From positions 1,336 through 65,335 of the forward strand of contig CAZNZF010000002.1 of assembly GCA_964577465.1 (NCBI GenBank): 64,000 bases of DNA. The letters are read 5' to 3'. Source of the stretch: an uncultured bacterium. GTDB lineage: Bacteria; RBG-13-66-14. Below, piece after piece: positions 4,899 through 53,956 of this stretch. The notes beneath the pieces were generated by a model that was not told where the DNA came from, ran no database searches, and was given only the letters and a program-made list of their open reading frames with translations. How positions within the stretch are numbered: the stretch's first letter is position 1; each line of letters opens with the position of its first letter. A program made the translations under genes and the position numbers.

Positions 4899-5524
4899 AG
4901 AAGAAGAAGGTCCCCCAGGCCACCGTCCACCGCCTCTCGCTCTACACCCGCTACCTGGGCGAGTTGGAGACCCAGGGCGAGGACTACGTCTCCAGCGAGA
5001 GGCTGGGGGAGGGCGTGGGCACGAACGGGGCCCAGGTCCGTAAAGACCTGAGCTTCTTCGACCGTTTCGGCATCCCCGGCCGGGGTTATCCGGTGAGCTT
5101 CCTGCGCAAACGGCTGGCGAACATCCTCGGTGTGGGGGACAAGGTGTGGCGGGTGGCGGTGGTGGGGGCCGGAAGGCTGGGGGCGGCGCTGGTGGGCTAC
5201 AGTGTTTTCGAGAAGCAGAGCTTCCACTTCGTCGCCATCCTGGACAACGACCCGGCGAAAATCGGCACGCGGGTCAACGGTCTCGAGGTCAGCGACATCA
5301 GAGACCTCCGCGGAATCGTCGCCTCGGAGAACGTGGAGGTCGCCGTAATCACCGTCCCCGTGCACAGCGCCCAGCAGGTGGCCGACATGCTCGTGGAGGC
5401 CGGGGTGCGGGCCCTGTTGAATTTCGCCCCGGCCAAGCTGGACGTCTCCCCGCAAATCGCGCTGCGCAACGTAGACCTGGCCGTCGAGCTGGAAGGGTTG
5501 TCCTTCCACCTCATCAACCGCTGA
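4895..5524 (+). CDS. rex: Redox-sensing transcriptional repressor Rex
   Basis: N-terminal wHTH (TVHRLSLYTRYL) plus Rossmann fold (RVAVVGAGRLGAAL), diagnostic of Rex. ATGA overlap with the upstream gene. Confidence 0.85.
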   Translation: MKKKKVPQATVHRLSLYTRYLGELETQGEDYVSSERLGEGVGTNGAQVRKDLSFFDRFGIPGRGYPVSFLRKRLANILGVGDKVWRVAVVGAGRLGAALVGYSVFEKQSFHFVAILDNDPAKIGTRVNGLEVSDIRDLRGIVASENVEVAVITVPVHSAQQVADMLVEAGVRALLNFAPAKLDVSPQIALRNVDLAVELEGLSFHLINR

Positions 5525-5542
5525 AGACCGACAGGGGGGTTC

Positions 5543-6652
5543 TTGGAGGAACGGCCCAACGTGCCGCTGGCGGATCTGGCCGCCGCCCACCGGGAGAACG
5601 CCGACGCCCTCGAGGGTGCCGCCGTAGCAGCTTTGCGCTCGGGACGGTACATCCTGGGGCCCGAGGTGGCCGCCTTCGAGACGGAGCTGGCGGCCTACGT
5701 GGGGGTGGGGCATGCCGTGGGCGTGGCTTCGGGCTCGGACGCCCTGCTCCTGACCCTGCAGGCGCTGGACCTGCCGCCGGGCTCGAAGGTGGTGACGACG
5801 CCGTTCACCTTCTTCGCCACGGTGTCCTGCATCGTCCGGCTCGGCCACCAGCCGGTGTTCGTGGACATCGACCCGGTGAGCTTCAACCTGGACGTGGGCC
5901 GGGTAGCCGAGGCCGCCCTCGACCCCGAGGTGCGGGCGGTCATCGGGGTGGACCTCTACGGCGACCCGCTGGATTACGACGCGCTGCGCGATTCCATCGG
6001 GCGCGACGACGTTAAAATCGTAGAGGACGCGGCTCAGAGCTTCGGCGCGGAGCTGCGTGGGCGGAAGGCCGGCTCGCTGACGGACGCGGCCACCTTCAGC
6101 TTTTTCCCGGCGAAGAATCTGGGCGCCGCGGGGGACGGCGGGGCGGTGGTTACCGACGACGCCGAGCTGGCCGACCGGGTGCGCATCCTGCGGGTCCACG
6201 GGGCCCGGCCGAAGTACCGCCACCACGTGGTCGGCTACAACTCCCGGCTGGACCCCGTGCAGGCCGCGATGCTGCGGGTGAAGCTGCGGCGGATTGACGA
6301 GGACGTGCAACGTCGGCGCCGCATCGCGGAGCGCTACGCCCCCCTGACCGAGGTCGCTGAACCGCCCTCGCCGCCGCCCGACCACCGGCACTCGTACAAC
6401 TACTTCGTAGTTTCCGTGCCGCGCCGGGACGAGCTGGCGGCGCACCTGACCGGCAAAGGCGTCGGCAACGCCCTGTACTACCCCGAACCGCTCCACCTCC
6501 AGCCCTGCTTCGCCGGATTGGGCTACGGCGAGGGCGACTTCCCCGTGGCCGAGGCGGCCTGCGGTCGCGTCATCGCCCTGCCCATGTACCCCCAGCTCAC
6601 CGAGGCGGACCAGGACTACGTCATCGAGACCATTCTGAAATTTTACCGCTGA
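5543..6652 (+). CDS. DegT/DnrJ/EryC1/StrS family sugar-nucleotide aminotransferase
   Basis: PLP-dependent sugar aminotransferase fold, ~369 aa. Motifs GPEVAAFE and FSFFPAKNLGAAGDGG. Confidence 0.85.
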   Translation: MEERPNVPLADLAAAHRENADALEGAAVAALRSGRYILGPEVAAFETELAAYVGVGHAVGVASGSDALLLTLQALDLPPGSKVVTTPFTFFATVSCIVRLGHQPVFVDIDPVSFNLDVGRVAEAALDPEVRAVIGVDLYGDPLDYDALRDSIGRDDVKIVEDAAQSFGAELRGRKAGSLTDAATFSFFPAKNLGAAGDGGAVVTDDAELADRVRILRVHGARPKYRHHVVGYNSRLDPVQAAMLRVKLRRIDEDVQRRRRIAERYAPLTEVAEPPSPPPDHRHSYNYFVVSVPRRDELAAHLTGKGVGNALYYPEPLHLQPCFAGLGYGEGDFPVAEAACGRVIALPMYPQLTEADQDYVIETILKFYR

Positions 6653-13475: not shown

Positions 13476-14645
13476 ATGGGCAAGTATATCGGTATCGGCC
13501 GCAAGGCCCGGCAGTGCTTCGGTTTCGACGACGTGGCGCTGGTTCCGGGAAGTCTGACCATCAACCCCGATGACGTGGACATCTCCTGGGAGGTCGCCGG
13601 GAAGCGCTTCGTGGTCCCCATCGTCGCCTCGGCCATGGACGGCGTGGTGGACGTGAAATTCGCGGTGGAGTTCGGGCGGCTGGGCGGGTTCGCCGTTTTA
13701 AATCTCGAAGGCGTTCAGACCCGCTTCGCCGACCCCGGCGAGGTGCTGGACCGCATCGGTGCCGCGAAGCCCGACGAGAGCACCCACCTGCTCCAGAAGC
13801 TCTACGAGGAGCCCATCAAGAAGGAACTCGTCGGCCGGAGGGTGGAGGAAATCAAGGCCGGAGGAGCGCCCGCCGTGGTGAGCGCCATCCCCCAGCGCGC
13901 CGCCGAGTTCGGGCCGCTGGCCGCCGAGGCCGGCTGCGACATCTTCGTCGTCCAGTCCACCGTCGCCACCGTCGAGCACGAATCGAAGAGCTACGAGTCG
14001 CTGGACTTCACAAAATTCATCGCCGACATGCACGGGCGAAAGATTCCCGTCATGGTCGGCAACACCACCACCTACGAGGTCACCTACGCCCTGATGAAGA
14101 CGGGCGCGGACGGCATATTCAGCGGTGTCGGACCGGGGGCGGCCTGCACCACCCGCGGCGTCCTGGGCATCGGCGTGCCGCAGATCACCACCACCGTAGA
14201 CTGCGCCTACGCCAGGGACCGCTTCTACAAGATGACCGGCCGCTACGTACCCGTCATCACCGACGGCGGGATGCGGGTCGGCGGGGACATCTGCAAGGCC
14301 TTCGCCGCCGGCGCCGACGCGGTGATGATAGGCTCGCCCTTCGCCAAGGCCTACGAGGCCCCGGGCCGCGGCTACCACTGGGGCATGGCCACGCCCCACG
14401 CCAACCTCCCGCGCGGCACGCGGGTCCAAGTGGGCCAGAACGCCTCCCTGGAGCGCATCCTCTTCGGTCCCGCCGAGCTGGACGACGGCAGCCAGAACCT
14501 GGTCGGGGCGCTGCGGACCAGCATGGGCAACGTGGGGGCGCACAACATCAAAGAGATGCAGAACACGGAAATCATCATCGCCCCCGCGATTCAGACCGAG
14601 GGCAAGCTGCTGCAGAAGGCGCAGAAAATCGGCATGGCCAAGTAG
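13476..14645 (+). CDS. IMP dehydrogenase/GMP reductase family protein (no CBS insert)
   Basis: Catalytic-loop motif GVGPGAACTTRGVLGIGVPQ, comparable to IMPDH GIGPGSICTTR. TIM-barrel length without a CBS subdomain. Confidence 0.8.
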   Translation: MGKYIGIGRKARQCFGFDDVALVPGSLTINPDDVDISWEVAGKRFVVPIVASAMDGVVDVKFAVEFGRLGGFAVLNLEGVQTRFADPGEVLDRIGAAKPDESTHLLQKLYEEPIKKELVGRRVEEIKAGGAPAVVSAIPQRAAEFGPLAAEAGCDIFVVQSTVATVEHESKSYESLDFTKFIADMHGRKIPVMVGNTTTYEVTYALMKTGADGIFSGVGPGAACTTRGVLGIGVPQITTTVDCAYARDRFYKMTGRYVPVITDGGMRVGGDICKAFAAGADAVMIGSPFAKAYEAPGRGYHWGMATPHANLPRGTRVQVGQNASLERILFGPAELDDGSQNLVGALRTSMGNVGAHNIKEMQNTEIIIAPAIQTEGKLLQKAQKIGMAK

Positions 14646-14715
14646 GCCGGGCTTTTTAGTAAAACCTGACGGGGGCGGTCCTCCGCGGGCCGCCTTCGCT
14701 TGGGTGGAGTCGAGA

Positions 14716-15432
14716 ATGCGTCAAATTACTTTACTATTGATATTGGTCGCCGGGTGCGTGTCGGCCGAATTGTGCGACACCGAGCCGGAGCTTCGGGAGG
14801 TTGGCCGCGACCTGGCCGCGAAGGCCGCCGCATTCTACGCCGAGAAGTATTTTCCCGGTTCGAGCGTCGGCTCCGGCGAACCGGTGTACGACATCATAGA
14901 GGAGGGACAAATAGTCGGCTGGTATTTCATCATAGACACCAACGGGGAAGAGACAATATCATTTCGTGAGTACATCGAATTTGATGCACGATTGCACAAA
15001 GAGTATTTAACGCCCTTATTAACTAATCAGCCTTTCGAGGATCTTACTGCACTTACGAAGTACAACAACCAAATCGAAAACTATAAAGCAATATATATAT
15101 CTAATTATTTAGAACATTGTCCATTTTTACATTTAGAGATGGGCAGGGTAATTGCGATTTCGGGAACTCCATACTCAATTAAGCAGGTGTGTGAGCTATT
15201 TAACGCATACTTGGTAAATATTAACAGGTTATGCTCTTTACCGAATTCAGTAATATATGCAATTCAATTTGAAGACAATAATGGTAATTCATACTATTGC
15301 ATTAATTCGCTTGGGAAGCTTTATTATTCTTCAGACGAGATTGATGAAGTCATTACTTATTTAAAAGTATATCATTATGAATCTCGAATTCAGCCTTCAG
15401 GAACATGGCAAGATATACTTGATAGTTATTGA
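14716..15432 (+). CDS. Hypothetical lipoprotein with compositionally chimeric gene (GC-rich 5' third, AT-rich 3' two-thirds)
   Basis: Lipobox LVAGC after a signal peptide. Single uninterrupted ORF. Sharp drop in GC content from ~14950 to 15450. Confidence 0.5.
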   Translation: MRQITLLLILVAGCVSAELCDTEPELREVGRDLAAKAAAFYAEKYFPGSSVGSGEPVYDIIEEGQIVGWYFIIDTNGEETISFREYIEFDARLHKEYLTPLLTNQPFEDLTALTKYNNQIENYKAIYISNYLEHCPFLHLEMGRVIAISGTPYSIKQVCELFNAYLVNINRLCSLPNSVIYAIQFEDNNGNSYYCINSLGKLYYSSDEIDEVITYLKVYHYESRIQPSGTWQDILDSY

Positions 15433-15450
15433 GTATTCATTCTAGGTTAA

Positions 15451-16242
15451 GTGATGGACTCACGTGAAGTCGGGCGTTATTGGGATGAAAACGCGCCGGT
15501 GTGGACGCGGCTGGCGCGGATGGGCTGCGACGTCTTCCGCGACCAGTTCAACACGCCGGCCTTCCTTTCAATGCTCCCCGACGTTACGGGGCTCAACGGT
15601 TTGGATATCGGCTGCGGCGAGGGGGCCAACACGCGCCAGTTGGCCCGGCGCGGGGCGCGGATGACCGCCCTGGATGTCTCGGCGAACTTTATCAAGCTGG
15701 CGGTGGACTTCGTCGATGATGATACGCCGGGGATAACCTACCTCGTCGCCGACGGCTGCCGCCTGCCCTTCGCGCGGGAGAGCTTCGACTTCGTCACCGC
15801 TTTCATGAGCCTGATGGACATGCCGGACCAGGAGGGGGCCTTCGCCGAGGTCCGCCGGGTGCTGAAACCGGGCGGCTTCCTCCAGTTTTCCATCACCCAC
15901 CCCTGCACCGACACGCCGTACCGCAAATGGATTGAGGACGGGGACGGCCGCCACGTCGCGCTCTCCGTCGCCGACTACTTTCGTGAGCTCGATGGCGAAA
16001 TCTGCGAGTGGATGTTCTGCCACGCGCCGGAGGAGCTCCGGGAGACGCTGCCGAAGTTCAGGATTCCCGACTTCCACCGGACCTTGAGCTTCTACCTCAA
16101 CACCCTGGCGGAGGCCGGTTTCGTCCTGGAGCGGGCCTGCGAGCCGAAAGCCTCCGAGGAGACGGCCGAGAGGTTTCCCTTGCTGGCGGATTCGTGCCTC
16201 GTGCCGCTTTTTCTAATCATCCGGGCCCGGTGGCCCAAGTAA
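15451..16242 (+). CDS. Class I SAM-dependent methyltransferase
   Basis: Motif I LDIGCGEGANT. Post-I acidic residue. Motif II/III region VLKPGGFLQF. Confidence 0.8.
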   Translation: MMDSREVGRYWDENAPVWTRLARMGCDVFRDQFNTPAFLSMLPDVTGLNGLDIGCGEGANTRQLARRGARMTALDVSANFIKLAVDFVDDDTPGITYLVADGCRLPFARESFDFVTAFMSLMDMPDQEGAFAEVRRVLKPGGFLQFSITHPCTDTPYRKWIEDGDGRHVALSVADYFRELDGEICEWMFCHAPEELRETLPKFRIPDFHRTLSFYLNTLAEAGFVLERACEPKASEETAERFPLLADSCLVPLFLIIRARWPK

Positions 16243-37241: not shown

Positions 37242-37793
37242 TTACCTGAGGAACTTCGAGACGAAGGGCGAGGTCTCGCCGCGACGCATGAAGTGTCCCG
37301 AGGGCCCCTCGCCTAGAAATTCCGAGAACCAGGACTCGTGCTCGATTTCCTCGTTGAGGATGGCCAGGACCAGGTCGTAGGTCCGGTGGTCCTTGCCCGC
37401 GGTCATGTTGCAGATTGCGGTGTAGCCTCGGACGGCGCAGCGTTCCGCCTCCACGAGCACCTTCAGGATGGCATTGACGTCGGAGGTGTCTTTGGGGAGG
37501 TGGGCCGGGGGGCAGGCGGAGAGGTCGTGGAATTTCTTCATGTCGTCGGGCAGCTTGCCGCCCAGCTCGTAGATGCGCGGGAACAGCGCTTCGAAGTGGT
37601 TGCGGTCCTCGACCCGGGCCGTCTCGGCGATTTCCTTCAGGGTCTCGCCGTCCAGGCCCGTAAGGTTGGACCGCAGGATGGTGTAGTAGTAATAGGTGGT
37701 GAGCTCGGCGGCGGCGTTTTTCACCAGCAGGTCCAGGAGCTTGTCCACGTCCACGCCGGCTTTTTCCACCATCTCTCTGGCGACTTTGGCCAT
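37242..37793 (-). CDS. Bacterioferritin/ferritin-like diiron protein
   Basis: Ferritin-like four-helix pattern with E..H motifs (ETARVEDRNHFEAL...; LNEEIEHESWF), resembling Bfr ILRDEEGHIDWLE. Confidence 0.65.
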   Translation of the reverse strand: MAKVAREMVEKAGVDVDKLLDLLVKNAAAELTTYYYYTILRSNLTGLDGETLKEIAETARVEDRNHFEALFPRIYELGGKLPDDMKKFHDLSACPPAHLPKDTSDVNAILKVLVEAERCAVRGYTAICNMTAGKDHRTYDLVLAILNEEIEHESWFSEFLGEGPSGHFMRRGETSPFVSKFLR

Positions 37794-37799
37794 GGTTTA

Positions 37800-37990
37800 T
37801 CCTCCATTACGGTTGGGGTTTTTTCTTGACGACTGGAGCCACGGCAAAAGTATAGCGTGTTTGTCATATAAATGCATAATAAAATGCGAATAATATAAGT
37901 CATAATATAAACGATTATGGTTAATTGCAACTAATTCAATAACATGATGATACGCTTGCATTAAACACTGAGTAAACACCAAGCGGCTTG
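37800..37990. promoter_or_regulatory. Strongly AT-rich intergenic island upstream of bacterioferritin-like gene (candidate promoter/operator)
   Basis: ~190 bp at roughly 25-30% GC within a ~65% GC genome. Contains direct repeats AATGC(A/G)(T/A)AATAA and the imperfect flanking inverted repeat GTGTTTGTCA / TGAGTAAACAC. Confidence 0.4.
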
Positions 37991-38104
37991 TTGAGTAGTA
38001 GCGGGGTCGCTGTCCACGCCACTTGGTTTCCTCTGCGCGGGAGTACCGTCATTTTGCTAAAAAAACCCAGTTTGAGTGCCCGAAAGTCGGTGGTGATAAT
38101 TCTC

Positions 38105-38135
38105 GAAAAAGGCCGCCCGGTGGCGGCCTCGAATC
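38105..38135 (-). terminator. Rho-independent terminator downstream of superoxide reductase gene
   Basis: On the minus strand: GAGGCCGCCACCGGGCGGCC followed by TTTTTC. Confidence 0.55.
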
Positions 38136-38149
38136 ACTCGGAGGTTCCG

Positions 38150-38548
38150 CTACGCCAGCTCCACCCGCTTGCTCGATTCCCACAGGCCGTGGATGTTGCA
38201 GTAGGCGAGCGCGTTGAGCGTGCCGGCCTTGGCGGTCTTGAAGGAGAAGGTCGCCTCGTGGTGGGTGTACACCGGCCCGGTGTTGGGGCCGTCGGTGGAT
38301 TCGCCGTGGGCGTTGAACTCGAAAGTGCCCAGGTCGTAGGCGAATTTCGCGCCGTCCGGCACGAAGAACGCCTGAATCCACCGGATGTGGTGCTCCGTGG
38401 TGTTGGGGTGGGCGATTTCCTTGCCCAGGGTCACCGTAACCGGCGTGAACTCGCCCGGTTTGACCTTGTCCGGGCAGGTTATGACCGGCACGTGCTTCTC
38501 CTGCTTCCAGTCCGCCGACTGGATTTTCTCGGCTATGCGTTCGGCCAT
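38150..38548 (-). CDS. Superoxide reductase (1Fe-SOR/neelaredoxin type)
   Basis: EKHVPV motif and C-terminal CNIHGLWES. 132 aa with no desulforedoxin domain. Confidence 0.85.
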   Translation of the reverse strand: MAERIAEKIQSADWKQEKHVPVITCPDKVKPGEFTPVTVTLGKEIAHPNTTEHHIRWIQAFFVPDGAKFAYDLGTFEFNAHGESTDGPNTGPVYTHHEATFSFKTAKAGTLNALAYCNIHGLWESSKRVELA

Positions 38549-49456: not shown

Positions 49457-52207
49457 TTACCGGGCGATGATGAACCGCTGGGTGAGCACGCCTTCATCAG
49501 CCACCAGGCGGATGATGTACACGCCCGCGCTGGCACTGTTGGAATCCCAGGCCAAGGTATGCCGGCCCGCGGTCAGCTCGCCGGTCTGGATGGTGGAGAC
49601 GCGGCGTCCGGCCAGATCGAAGACGGCCAGCGTCACGTCCTGCGTCTCGGGCAGGGTGAAGGCGAAGTTGACCCTGCCGGATGTCGGGTTCGGGAAGGGA
49701 CTCTCGAGCGCCAGGGCCATGTCGGCGGTCGGACGGTATGACGCCTCGGCGGGGCCGTAGGAGACCGTGGTTCCGTCGGGTTTGATGGCCTCGATGTAGT
49801 AGTCGTAGTCGCCTTCCGCGGGTCGGTCGAGCCAGGCTCCGATGGTGCCGCCCTGGAGCGATTCGGTGTTGAGGCGGAGCCTTGAGCTGTCGCCTTGCTC
49901 GGCGCGGTAAATGTTGAAGCCGGCAAAGCCGGAGTCCGCGGTCCAGGTCAGCATGACGCCGTCCGAGGTGATTTTGGTTTCGATGGCGACCCAGGAGGCA
50001 CTCTCTTCGGGCACGCTCACCTGGATGTCGTCCACGTACCAGCCTTCGTTCGTTATATCATCGGAGTCGGAGACGAACCGGAATCGCAGTTGCACCACCG
50101 TGTCGGCGTAGGCGGTCAGATTGAGTACCCACTCCTGCCACGTGTACTGGGTGCCGTCGTGATTTTTTATCTGGAGCCAGCCGGAGCCGTCGTTGATATC
50201 GACATAGCCCATGTCTTGAGCGAACTGCAGCTCGTACCAGGTCCAGTAGCGCAGCTCCGCGGCGGCGGGGTTGATGTACACCGGCGGCGAGTAGAGGCAG
50301 GCGTTGATGTCTTTGACGTAATCGTCGCTCCCCATGCCCCCGCATTTCCACGAGTGTGAGGGTGAGTGCGAGCGGTAGTCGTCGACGTGCCATGCGTCGT
50401 TGTCGCCGTTATGGGTCCAGTACCACTCACCGCTCTCGACGTCGTCGTCTATCATATCGGCCGGCGAGAAGAGGGTGAAGAAGAGGTCCTGGGAGTCGAA
50501 GCCCTGGGATTGCACCGTCAGGGTGAACTCGAAGGAGTTGGGGGACCCGGACCCGGCGCTCACGTCGAAGCCGAAGGTGGAGGAACCGGAGTCGCCGGCG
50601 GGGATGGTGCCGAAATCTCCGTCGCCGTCGGTGATGGTGACGTCGGGGCTGGAGCAGGTGAGGGTGCCCGTGGTGCTCGGACCGGAGCCCTCACCCACGT
50701 TGTTGATGGTCACCTCGATTTCGATGGACTCACCGGGCTCGATGAGGCCGTCGGAGTCGGTGTCCGAGGTGACGGCCACGTCGCCGAGCTCGAAGCTGGG
50801 CTCCTCGGGGGACGGGGTCAGGGATTGCACCGCGGCCAGGACGTCTATGCGTCCCGAGCCGTAGTCGTTGTCCTTGCCCGCATCACCCAGGTCGATGGCG
50901 GTGTCCTCCAGGACCTGTTTCAGCTCCGCGGGGGTCAGCGTGTAGTCGGCGTCCAGCAGGAGGGCACAGGCGCCGGCGACGTGGGGGGTCGCCATGGAGG
51001 TGCCGTTCCACCCGTCCTGGTACGCGGTGTCCGAGGAGACGTAGCAGCTCTTGATGTTGACGCCGGGGGCGGACACGTCGGGCTTGATGCAGTCTTCGCT
51101 GCCCCATTCGTCGGTGGGGCCGCGGCTGGAGAATCCGGCGATGACATCGCCGGAGTCGGTGGCGCCCACGGTGATGACTTCGGGCACGTTGCCCGGGGTG
51201 CGCAGCGTCATGGGGCCGGGCCCCTCGTTGCCGGCGGCGATGACCAGGGCGGTGCCGGCGGCGATGGCGTTCTGGGCGTTGGTGCGCCACGTGGGCTTAT
51301 CCGGATTCCAGGAGTCGATCCAGCCCAGGGAGTTGGAGACCACGTCCGCGCCGAAATCCACGGCCCCCTGCCAGGAGGCCCACACGGACAGCTCGCCCTG
51401 GTGGTTGCCGTACATGTAAAGGCGGTGGGCGCCGTAGTTGTATTCGGGCGCCACGCCGGCCTGGGTCCCGGCGGTGCCGTCGGAGCCCACGCTGCCCGCG
51501 CAGTGCGTGCCGTGCTCCTCACCGGACGAGAAATAGGGGTCGGGGTCGTTGTCCGCGTAGTCGTAGCTGATCGAGGGGTCGTAGTGGCTGGCGAGGTCGT
51601 GGTGTGTGTAGCGCTGGCCCGTGTCTCCGATTACTACGGAGACGCCCGCGCCGGTGTAACCCAGGTCCCAGACGGCGGGGGCGTTGACCTTATCCACCCC
51701 CCAGGCGATCTCGCGGCCGTTGTCGTACACGGTGAGGGGTTCGGCGCTCTCGCCGGCCTTGAATCCGAGCCCGATCCACTGACCGTCGCCGTCGGCGCCG
51801 CGGGTGATGCGGGCCACCTCGGGCCGTTGGGCCACCTCGAGGATGGCCTTCGGGGTCAGCTCGGCGTAGACGAAGTTGGAGATCCAGAACGGGCGGTAGG
51901 CGCCCACCGAACCGTTGGTCTGGTTGGCGGTCAACCATCGCAGCAGGCCCTCCTGCTCGGTCGAGGCCACGTTCTTGAGCCAGCCGGTGACGGCCGCCCG
52001 GGCCTCGTCCCGCGTGCGGCCCAGCCAGAGTTGGGCCGTCGTCGCCCGGTCGAGCTGGGTCTGCAGGGTGATGTAGCAGGGGAGCAACTCATTATCGGTG
52101 CTCGTGGCCACGTAGCCCTGGAGGTAATCGGTTAGCTTGGCCTCGGGCTCCACGGCCATGGAGCTGAAGGCTAAAACTAATGCCAACAATATCAATATCT
52201 TCCGCAT
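49457..52207 (-). CDS. Secreted subtilisin-like serine protease (S8) with C-terminal T9SS-type sorting/FlgD-Ig-like domain
   Basis: Signal peptide MRKILILLALVLAFSSMA. Catalytic triad motifs VIGDTG, HGTHCAG, GTSMATPHVAG. C-terminal TLAVFDLAGRRV...GVYIIRL typical of a Por-secretion CTD. Confidence 0.8.
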   Translation of the reverse strand: MRKILILLALVLAFSSMAVEPEAKLTDYLQGYVATSTDNELLPCYITLQTQLDRATTAQLWLGRTRDEARAAVTGWLKNVASTEQEGLLRWLTANQTNGSVGAYRPFWISNFVYAELTPKAILEVAQRPEVARITRGADGDGQWIGLGFKAGESAEPLTVYDNGREIAWGVDKVNAPAVWDLGYTGAGVSVVIGDTGQRYTHHDLASHYDPSISYDYADNDPDPYFSSGEEHGTHCAGSVGSDGTAGTQAGVAPEYNYGAHRLYMYGNHQGELSVWASWQGAVDFGADVVSNSLGWIDSWNPDKPTWRTNAQNAIAAGTALVIAAGNEGPGPMTLRTPGNVPEVITVGATDSGDVIAGFSSRGPTDEWGSEDCIKPDVSAPGVNIKSCYVSSDTAYQDGWNGTSMATPHVAGACALLLDADYTLTPAELKQVLEDTAIDLGDAGKDNDYGSGRIDVLAAVQSLTPSPEEPSFELGDVAVTSDTDSDGLIEPGESIEIEVTINNVGEGSGPSTTGTLTCSSPDVTITDGDGDFGTIPAGDSGSSTFGFDVSAGSGSPNSFEFTLTVQSQGFDSQDLFFTLFSPADMIDDDVESGEWYWTHNGDNDAWHVDDYRSHSPSHSWKCGGMGSDDYVKDINACLYSPPVYINPAAAELRYWTWYELQFAQDMGYVDINDGSGWLQIKNHDGTQYTWQEWVLNLTAYADTVVQLRFRFVSDSDDITNEGWYVDDIQVSVPEESASWVAIETKITSDGVMLTWTADSGFAGFNIYRAEQGDSSRLRLNTESLQGGTIGAWLDRPAEGDYDYYIEAIKPDGTTVSYGPAEASYRPTADMALALESPFPNPTSGRVNFAFTLPETQDVTLAVFDLAGRRVSTIQTGELTAGRHTLAWDSNSASAGVYIIRLVADEGVLTQRFIIAR

Positions 52208-52406
52208 GGAGCCCCCATTGGCTTGTGTTTCGTTATCGTTAAGGTTGGCCTGAGTAAAGCTACAACCTTCACCAGCTAAACTAGCGGAAAAAATCCTAAT
52301 TGTCAAATTTAACTTCGAGCGTGAAAGGATTGATAGCTCTGCCTTTTGCCGATGTATCACCCCGGAGATAAAGAGAGGTCCTTATTATTGAACGCAAGAT
52401 ACGTGC

Positions 52407-52434
52407 GAAAAGGGGGTGTGCCCCCCTTTTTATT
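52407..52434. terminator. Rho-independent terminator immediately downstream of dnaA
   Basis: GAAAAGGGGGTGTGCCCCCC followed by a T5 run on the plus strand. The minus-strand reading is also hairpin-competent with a 4-T tail. Confidence 0.5.
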
Positions 52435-52453
52435 TGGCCCAATAACGCAGGAT

Positions 52454-53755
52454 TTAATCGCCGCCGGCGCTGGCGATGCGCTCCAGCTTGCTCACCAGGG
52501 CGGCCGTATCGGCGTCGTTTTCCACCACGTCGCGGATTTTATTGTAGCTGTGGATGACGGTGGAGTGGTCGCGTCCGCCGAACTGGAGCCCGATTTCGTG
52601 GAGCTTCGCGTCGGTCAGGTTTCTCGCCAGGTACATGGCCACCTGCCGCGGGAAGACGACCGAGGCGTTGCGCGTTTTGGACAGAAGCTCGCCCAGCGCC
52701 ACCTCGAAGTGGTCGCAGACCACCCGCTGAATCGTACCGATGGAGACCCGGGGGGTCTCGCGGCCGAGGATGTTGGACAGAACCTCGCGGGCCATCTTGG
52801 CGGAAATCGGCTGCTCGCTGATGGCGCTGAAGGCCGACAGCCGCAGAATCGCCCCCTCGATGGTGCGGATGTTCGACCGCACCCGCTGGGCGATGAGGTC
52901 GACCACCTCGTCGGGAAGGTGGATGCCCTCGTTCTCGGCCTTGGCCTGGATGATGGCGATGCGGGTTTCGATGTCCGGCGGTTGGATGTCGATGAGCAGG
53001 CCCCATTCGAAACGGGTGACCAGCCGTTCGTCGAGCTTTATCTCCGCCGGCGGACGGTCCGAGGTGAATACGATCTGCTTCGAGTTGTTGTACAGGGTGT
53101 TGAAGGTGTGGAAGAGCTCCTCCAGCGTAGCCTCTTTCCCGGCCAGGAACTGGAGGTCGTCGATTAAAAGGATGTCCAGGTTGCGGTACTTGGCCCGCAG
53201 GTCCGAGGAGCGGTCGTAGCGGATGGCTTCGATGAACTCGTTGGTGAACTCCTCGCTGGTGACGTAGGCGGTGCGCAACTCCCTGCGCGACTGGAAGGAT
53301 TCGTGGCCGATGGCGTGCAGAATGTGGGTCTTACCCAGCCCCACGCCGGCGTAGATGAAGAGCGGGTTGTAAATCTGGCCGGGCCGCTCGACGACGGCCT
53401 GGGCTGCGGCGTAGGCGGTGGAGTTGCCGCGCCCGACCACGAAGCTCTCGAAGGTGTACTTGGGGTTGTACGGGTTGCGGGGCGAGATCGGCTTCTTCCC
53501 CCCTCCGTTGTTCCGGGCCACCAGGACGACCTCGAGGTCGCGGCCGCAGACGCTCGCGAACTCCCCCGTTATCTGCTCGAGGTAGGTCGAGCCCAGCCAG
53601 TCCACGTAGCGCTGGTTGGGCACCTCGAGGGTGACGAGGTCCTCGGTCAAGGCCCGGGGCTTTATGAGGGAGATGTAGGATTTGTAATGGTACGGGTCTA
53701 TTCGGGGCTTCAGGTTCCCGGAGACCTGGGCCCAGAGGTCCTTAAGCCGGTCCAT
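52454..53755 (-). CDS. dnaA: Chromosomal replication initiator protein DnaA
   Basis: AAA+ Walker [11 protein letters not shown], Walker [10 protein letters not shown], sensor and domain IV motifs. The start was chosen at MDRLKDLWA. Confidence 0.92.
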
Positions 53756-53850
53756 GATCCTGTGTCCGTTCGTCGTTTGCCGGTTGACGCCGATTGGGGG
53801 ACGGGTTGATTGAGGGGGGGATTGCGTATCGGCTTGCCGCGTCGCGCAAT

Positions 53851-53956
53851 TTGTCCACAAAAACCGCGGACTGTATTTTTGGGTGACTCGTGGCTTTATA
53901 TGGGCCGGGTGCGGAGGCGTGGGGAGTTGTCAACCAAGAGTCGCACGTTATCCACA
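53851..53956. promoter_or_regulatory. DnaA-box region upstream of dnaA (candidate oriC / dnaA autoregulatory region)
   Basis: Perfect DnaA box TTATCCACA at 53948-53956. One-mismatch box TTGTCCACA at 53851-53859. AT-rich stretch in between. Confidence 0.45.

Follow-up and report, generated by a model that had tools for sequence, protein, structure and literature searches.

An AT-rich cassette within a gene for a small, predicted exported protein of Candidatus Coatesbacteria, probably exchanged by homologous recombination

The AT-rich remainder of gene X, an intact open reading frame in the 64,000-nucleotide (64-kb) stretch of DNA analysed here (the window), is a unit that has been replaced by recombination, and the edges of that unit lie where the composition of the gene breaks. 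The reading that we consider probable is that of a subgenic AT-rich cassette exchanged by homologous recombination, its AT-richness being a standing property of the gene family and not the legacy of a recent donor of foreign DNA. A sharp GC step within a gene, in other words, need not mean recent foreign DNA: the one described here is conserved within its clade and borders a recombining subgenic cassette. The analysis also defines a small and previously unnamed family of proteins in Candidatus Coatesbacteria and relatives, predicted to be exported and PepSY-like in fold.

Gene X, its composition step and its locus

The preliminary description of this DNA had reported a single open reading frame with a GC break, a drop to 35-40% GC from about position 14950 to 15450, and a return to normal composition at the next gene (15451), all of which is borne out by a maximum-likelihood three-segment fit (log-likelihood gain of about 72). 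The change points of the fit (Table 1) fall within about 25 nt of those positions, its three segments have GC contents of 0.65, 0.33 and 0.65, which makes the drop slightly deeper than described, and native composition is regained at the methyltransferase start, GTG 15451 or ATG 15454. GC at the first, second and third codon positions is 0.62, 0.43 and 0.72 in codons 1-69, and 0.38, 0.30 and 0.32 in codons 70-238 (the C-part). The C-part has a composition z-score of -9.5 against 170-codon windows in the remaining genes of the window, and is the sole coding stretch within the 64 kb that falls below 45% GC per 300 nt, the GC content of the whole window being 64.4%. Its FYMINK content is 38%, as against 19%; under the codon usage of the window, however, the same amino acids would be expected to give a GC3 of 0.84 and a total GC of 0.53, whereas 0.32 and 0.33 are observed, so that amino acid bias accounts for part of the drop only.

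A GGAG Shine-Dalgarno sequence (14706-14709) lies 6 nt 5' of the ATG of gene X, and the hairpin with a T-run that follows the IMPDH-like gene suggests, as a prediction from a consensus scan, that gene X opens a separate transcript. No RNA family is found by Rfam in 14400-15700.

Table 1. Features of the gene X locus in the window
Feature	Coordinates	Strand	Basis
IMPDH/GMP-reductase-family gene; conserved upstream flank of the syntenic locus	13476..14645	+	Pfam PF00478, 9.1e-50
Terminator-like hairpin and T-run 3' of the IMPDH-like gene	14635..14654	+	consensus scan only
Gene X, 238 aa; secreted protein of an unnamed family with three PepSY-like modules (modelled)	14716..15432	+	
Signal peptide, residues 1-17, MRQITLLLILVAGCVSA	14716..14766	+	sequence and family alignments
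Conserved N-part, residues 18-69, native GC (GC3 0.72); putative 5' recombination anchor	14767..14922	+	
AT-rich hypervariable cassette, 33% GC: codons 70-238, stop and 21-nt spacer	14923..15455	+	change points
SAM-dependent methyltransferase (MTase) gene; first ~70 nt a putative 3' anchor	15454..16242	+	Pfam PF08241, 2.4e-26

A word-indexed search of 5.8 billion proteins returned six full-length homologs of protein X at 43-63% identity (the same search with the C-terminal part alone returned the query itself only), and when 1.84 billion representatives were searched exhaustively with a profile, no more than three further homologs came to light. The family stands at 10 representatives in 1.84 billion proteins, with distant members at 27-28% identity. 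Gene X occupies the same place in five related Coatesbacteria loci (L001, L004, L007/L008/L009, L010 and L017), with the order IMPDH-X-MTase-GlgA-RimP-NusA-IF2 kept as far as the contigs reach (L001, L004, L007-type, L010 and L017), and the IMPDH-like protein of the window is 89-96% identical to those of L001, L004, L007 and L010. The paralog P0003 lies at another locus (GATase_5 ... DnaJ) in the same MAG as the L007-type ortholog; an unannotated 322-aa gene upstream of it (L002:3630-4409) contains internal repeats at an offset of about 141 nt (about 78% identity). A long form, P0012, is a 995-aa secreted beta-helix protein that carries an X-family module at its N-terminus. The distinct syntenic or paralogous X sequences number about seven, all of them from MAGs or metagenome contigs.

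Chimeric assemblies are well known for abrupt GC steps, and the window probably comes from a metagenome assembly; the chance that the locus is an assembly chimera or a decaying pseudogene is nevertheless practically negligible. Two contigs that were assembled independently, from two further JGI samples, run across both junctions and encode an identical X protein (L012/L022, with 1 SNP in 1498 nt relative to the window, and L023, with 12 SNPs in 1283 nt), and the matching architecture is found in 5 other lineages. The X open reading frame is intact in all relatives, and dN/dS of the C-part within each of the allele classes described below is 0.16-0.38, which indicates that protein X is functional and under purifying selection.

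Mosaic structure and exchange of the cassette

Nucleotide identity between the window and L004 is 93-97% over 14705-14825 and 88% over 14825-14884, drops to about 42% between 14945 and about 15425, and is again 95-97% at 15485; in junction alignments of the two, one edge lies at about 14895-14935 and the other precisely where the MTase begins, at 15451. The flanking proteins of these loci are 96% (IMPDH), 88.5% (MTase) and 92% (GlgA) identical, and protein X is 47% identical overall, with 85-87% amino acid identity in the N-part and 23-24% in the C-part. By the Nei-Gojobori method, dS between the window and L004 is 0.20-0.29 in the flanks and 0.40 in the N-part, and the C-part is saturated (pS 0.79). 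Among the syntenic orthologs, the N-part shows 67-87% amino acid identity and a dS of 0.4-0.6, similar to the flanks.

Comparison with L001 gives the reverse mosaic (N-part 65-87% and C-part 55-82% identical). Identity matrices and neighbour-joining trees divide the C-parts into class A, comprising the window, L001 and the paralog P0003, and class B, comprising L004, L017, L007 and L010; the module of P0012 is nearest to class B (48-51% identical to L007/L010 and 35-38% to L004/L017). The N-part tree joins the window with L004, as do the flanks, and the C-part tree joins it with L001 and the paralog. The preliminary description had proposed to look in related loci for a conserved N-terminus with variable C-termini, and this is what was found, with N-part and C-part trees in conflict. 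In the triplet of window, L004 and L001, the maximum chi-square method singles out an inner segment at 14934..15474 (chi-square 85.3, reached by 0 of 200 permutations), inside which the window agrees with L001 at 176 sites and with L004 at 53, the corresponding counts outside being 52 and 118; these breakpoints match the compositional change points.

The cassette of the window, a class-A allele, spans the modelled modules 2-3 and the C-terminal helices. The C-parts of both classes can be aligned over their full length and are homologous, with Y97, P100, L102, Y123, I128, S129, N130, P136, P152, L172, L175, N177, Y203 and W231 invariant. The presence of two allele classes at one locus suggests diversifying or frequency-dependent selection on X, in an uncultured phylum.

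The class-A cassette of L001 is followed by a spacer as in the window, and after it (L001:4826-5600) the first ~24 codons of the MTase gene occur as an orphan duplicate. Next come a gene for an NADPH-dependent FMN reductase (4964-5557, PF03358), which is an insertion, and an intact MTase, so that the insertion is bracketed by a duplicated 5' gene end. The orphan copy indicates that the cassette and the 5' end of the MTase gene move together. Both class-A loci (window and L001) have a common spacer of about 21 nt, 'tgagtattcattct...', between X and the methyltransferase start; in class-B loci the X stop overlaps that start as ATGA (L004:6720-6723, L007:6723-6726), which suggests translational coupling of X and the methyltransferase. 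As a separate observation, the methyltransferase is itself mosaic between L007:6726-7514 and L010:3565-4353 (69% amino acid identity, dS 1.4), and the IMPDH-like genes of these two loci are 95% identical (dS 0.19).

Fast point mutation in situ, under positive selection or hypermutation and with AT-biased mutation but no exchange, is a different way of arriving at such divergence. A GC3 of about 0.3 is close to the equilibrium that AT-biased mutation is expected to reach in bacteria, and both dS and dN of the cassette within each class are 2-4 times those of the flanks, which counts in favour of this explanation; the raised dS fits an older coalescence of the alleles and also a weaker synonymous constraint in AT-rich DNA. 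At strain level, however, the variants L004/L005/L006 (class B) carry 10-17 SNPs in the flanks and 0 in the 723 nt of X, and the window differs from L023 by 12 SNPs in 475 nt of flank and by 0 in 808 nt of intergenic region, X and spacer, all of these numbers being small and the flank SNPs partly clustered; local hypermutation is absent at gene X. Moreover, flank dS is 0.2-0.3 and yet the cassette is saturated, and a constant rate multiplier cannot yield a class switch. The incongruent N-part and C-part trees, in which the window cassette groups with a paralog from another locus, the recombination footprint in L001 and a cassette dN/dS below 0.4 tell against it as well, as does the result of a blastn search, which found no second copy of 14895-15455 in the window and hence no template repeat as a diversity-generating retroelement requires. 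Evolution in situ is, on this evidence, quite improbable.

Some other origins were rejected. A diversity-generating retroelement and a silent-cassette system were discarded since neither a template repeat nor an orphan cassette is present in the window, and insertion of a mobile element was discarded as the source of the block since no target-site duplication and no terminal inverted repeats are found around it.

Under homologous exchange of a cassette, the account that we favour, the first ~70 codons, which encode the signal peptide and the greater part of module 1, would be stable, vertically inherited and of genome GC, as part of the IMPDH-X-methyltransferase-glgA locus. The remaining ~170 codons and the short spacer would constitute a replacement cassette with at least two deeply diverged homologous allele classes, which would be swapped by homologous recombination between lineages and between paralogs of the family, with one crossover in the conserved coding sequence of module 1 and a second one within the initial ~70 nt of the methyltransferase gene. 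The mid-gene GC step would then be the edge of the exchanged unit, and the X family would elsewhere sit in AT-rich islands. What counts against exchange is the small number of sequences, about seven, and that class B may be simply vertical, with a single swap of A for B plus one transfer.

Age and persistence of the AT-richness

The low-GC segment begins 213 nt (L001), 207 nt (L004) and 210 nt (L007) into gene X and ends 1-9 nt from the X stop in these three loci, with GC3 at 0.75-0.80 ahead of the break and at 0.30-0.43 beyond it; a GC3 step like that of the window is also present in L010 and L017. The paralog P0003 has 37% GC and a GC3 of just 0.29 in its N-part, the distant homologs P0009 and P0010 have 41% GC within surroundings of 57-64% GC, and the long form P0012 has 38.5% GC and a GC3 of 0.24-0.34. 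Every member of the family is AT-rich within a GC-rich genome, in four genomic contexts and in surroundings of 54-70% GC, and the exhaustive search of 1.84 billion representatives, AT-rich genomes included, found no X homolog outside GC-rich surroundings. The shared break in related loci, together with the family-wide AT-richness, implies that the break is old and bears no mark of a recent foreign donor.

The preliminary description had taken the 3' part of the gene for a recent replacement by foreign DNA. Replacement stands, with its edges at the break; "recent" and "foreign" are not supported, given the shared break and the AT-rich family, and a full-length gene with a matching break is present in five syntenic related loci. 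Recent replacement of the 3' two-thirds from a foreign low-GC donor, not yet ameliorated, draws support from the sharpness of the break and its ending at a gene boundary, and from the fact that, relative to L004, the window underwent or escaped replacement of exactly the cassette block. Cassette GC3 also forms a series, from 0.25 in the long form through 0.30-0.32 in the paralog and class A to 0.36-0.43 in class B, and in polarised counts within the cassette changes from W to S are at least as numerous as those from S to W (counts that are noisy and biased by saturated AT-rich outgroups), both of which are compatible with slow amelioration of an AT-rich import, the source being a gene pool of AT-rich islands. 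We nevertheless judge this explanation very unlikely: the break recurs in all five syntenic relatives, with an MTase dS to the window of up to about 1; the nearest relative of the window cassette, in L001, stands at a dS of 1.66, too much for a recent cassette; the DNA around every homolog known (10 representatives in 1.84 billion) has 54-70% GC; and the cassette shares homology with its predecessor at the locus.

AT-richness may instead be maintained, either through exclusion from GC-biased gene conversion (gBGC, a concept taken from PMC4450053), as diverged alleles cannot recombine internally, or through selection of AT-rich DNA or of rare codons (for instance for silencing by a nucleoid protein, or for low expression), an explanation that complements cassette exchange rather than replacing it and that we regard, tentatively, as a possibility. 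In its favour, AT-richness persists throughout the family, down to 27% identity and in four genomic contexts; the same conserved N-terminal peptide is encoded with a GC3 of 0.72-0.80 in the recombining syntenic copies, the value in the other family members (paralog, long form and distant homologs) being 0.27-0.39; and published work has linked recombination positively with GC3 in bacteria (PMC4450053). The polarised counts, on the other hand, reveal no AT-ward pressure. To our knowledge, moreover, no silencer has been described in the Coatesbacteria phylum, which also weighs against maintenance. That the AT-richness is a maintained state and not a historical trace, with the GC step dividing DNA that recombines with relatives from DNA that is swapped whole, is in our estimate rather unlikely; if true, it would make gene X a natural experiment separating gBGC, amelioration and selection. 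The GC-rich and AT-rich encodings of the same X peptide could help to test what determines GC content within genomes.

Further AT-rich genes were seen near members of the family. In a genome of 65-70% GC, a 6-kb AT-rich island (L021:3001-9000, 30-47% GC) holds the genes for a Tricorn_N/PD40 protein, two unknown proteins and P0012, and the gene next after P0012 carries a Por_Secre_tail domain. P0012 itself comprises the X-family module, a middle region with Cys/His motifs and a beta-helix; these motifs may resemble those of a papain-like or C39-like peptidase, a tentative lead, and searches with the middle region matched no peptidase family. A second low-GC gene (L020:1358-2398; 346 aa, no Pfam match, 300-nt minimum 0.31 GC) is found 3 kb upstream of P0010, and X-bearing genomes may harbour AT-rich orphan genes repeatedly.

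Predicted export, fold and likeness to known systems

The LVAGC lipobox of the preliminary description is present in the window protein, in which V-A-G-C at residues 11-14 fits the pattern [LVI][ASTVI][GAS]C; the label of lipoprotein that went with it is uncertain, since the Cys is found in only 4 of the 10 family members and so is not kept across the family. P0003, P0005, P0006, P0008 and P0010 have no Cys in the lipobox stretch, and P0009 has one Cys near it, in a different, non-lipobox column. S16-A17-E18-L19, an SPase I-type site, is invariant across the 7 closest homologs. Judged from its sequence, lipidation of protein X is possible in the Coatesbacteria clade.

Protein X is modelled as a small exported protein with three PepSY-like modules, each consisting of a helix and a beta-sheet, the first of them at residues 30-74; a first AF2 model, built from 7 sequences, had a pLDDT of 52 and was discarded as too poor. 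The predicted structure agrees with the PepSY fold, in which a helix is packed on a 3-4-stranded sheet, often in tandem. Pfam PepSY (PF03413) matches none of the 10 family members, even at E<=10, searches of Pfam, NCBIfam, PHROGs and PDB sequences with protein X or the family alignment gave no match, and a Foldseek search of protein X against the PDB returned nothing significant. Predicted export is shared with PepSY proteins such as YpmB, YpeB and the propeptides of M4/M36 peptidases, and the module of P0012 stands at the N-terminus, the place for a propeptide; the lack of a sequence match to Pfam PepSY sets protein X apart from these proteins, and an inhibitory or regulatory role is suggested by analogy. 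The cassette would set the specificity with which the protein binds or inhibits a partner outside the cell, such as a hydrolase or a phage, and its variation would be kept by diversifying or frequency-dependent selection.

Among known systems the X cassette comes closest to a replacement flexible genomic island, here reduced to a portion of a single gene. In such islands, clusters for the O-chain, the S-layer and flagellar glycosylation are swapped at conserved borders (Lopez-Perez et al. 2014, PMC4033161), and they are reported to combine borders rich in SNPs with an interior that is identical (PMC4033161). The X locus likewise has a fixed place in all relatives, conserved borders as putative crossover sites, an interior that is almost unalignable between close relatives and identical among strains with SNPs at the borders, a border (N-part) dS that is somewhat raised (0.40 as against 0.20-0.29), and a product that is predicted to be exported. 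It differs in that the exchanged piece measures 0.53 kb and lies within one open reading frame, not in a multi-gene surface-structure cluster, and in that its alleles are homologous, with the same predicted fold, whereas islands hold different gene sets; the comparison for X is also at about genus level, whereas islands are compared among strains of one species.

A conserved 5' segment followed by a hypervariable remainder also recalls type IV pilins, flagellins and similar mosaic surface proteins, which share with X discrete allele classes across lineages and a conserved segment that can anchor recombination. Unlike them, protein X has a Sec-type signal peptide and neither a pilin-type leader nor an N-methylated hydrophobic helix, and it has a PepSY-like predicted fold and no silent cassette array in the window or in the relatives' loci.

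The preliminary description had further seen in the break the pattern of polymorphic surface or toxin proteins with swappable C-terminal domains. Polymorphic toxins (CdiA-CT, Rhs-CT) do resemble X in having a conserved N-part, a variable C-part of lower GC and a sharp breakpoint, but the toxin pattern is contradicted by C-termini that are mutually homologous and by the 21-nt spacer or ATGA overlap downstream, which leaves no room for an immunity gene; X is also only 238 aa long and matches no toxin or pre-toxin domain. The orphan C-terminal cassettes for which a search had been proposed did not turn up by tblastn in the 64-kb window or in the relatives' loci that were retrieved. X is also unlike the target of a diversity-generating retroelement, blastn finding no near-identical template repeat in the window.

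Two further low-GC spots of the 64-kb window are essentially intergenic and unrelated to gene X. A low-GC patch at 52155-52466 lies on the 3' side of dnaA (52454..53860, -) and overlaps the start of a gene (49457..52360, -) for a 967-aa S8 subtilase whose C-terminal sorting domain is of T9SS type. This patch may be tied to a replication origin, but the GC skew does not switch at it. The second spot, about 350 nt of AT-rich intergenic DNA (37794-38149), has a ferritin-like gene (37242..37793, -) on one side and a desulfoferrodoxin/superoxide-reductase gene (38150..38548, -) on the other, and probably serves to regulate oxidative-stress genes.
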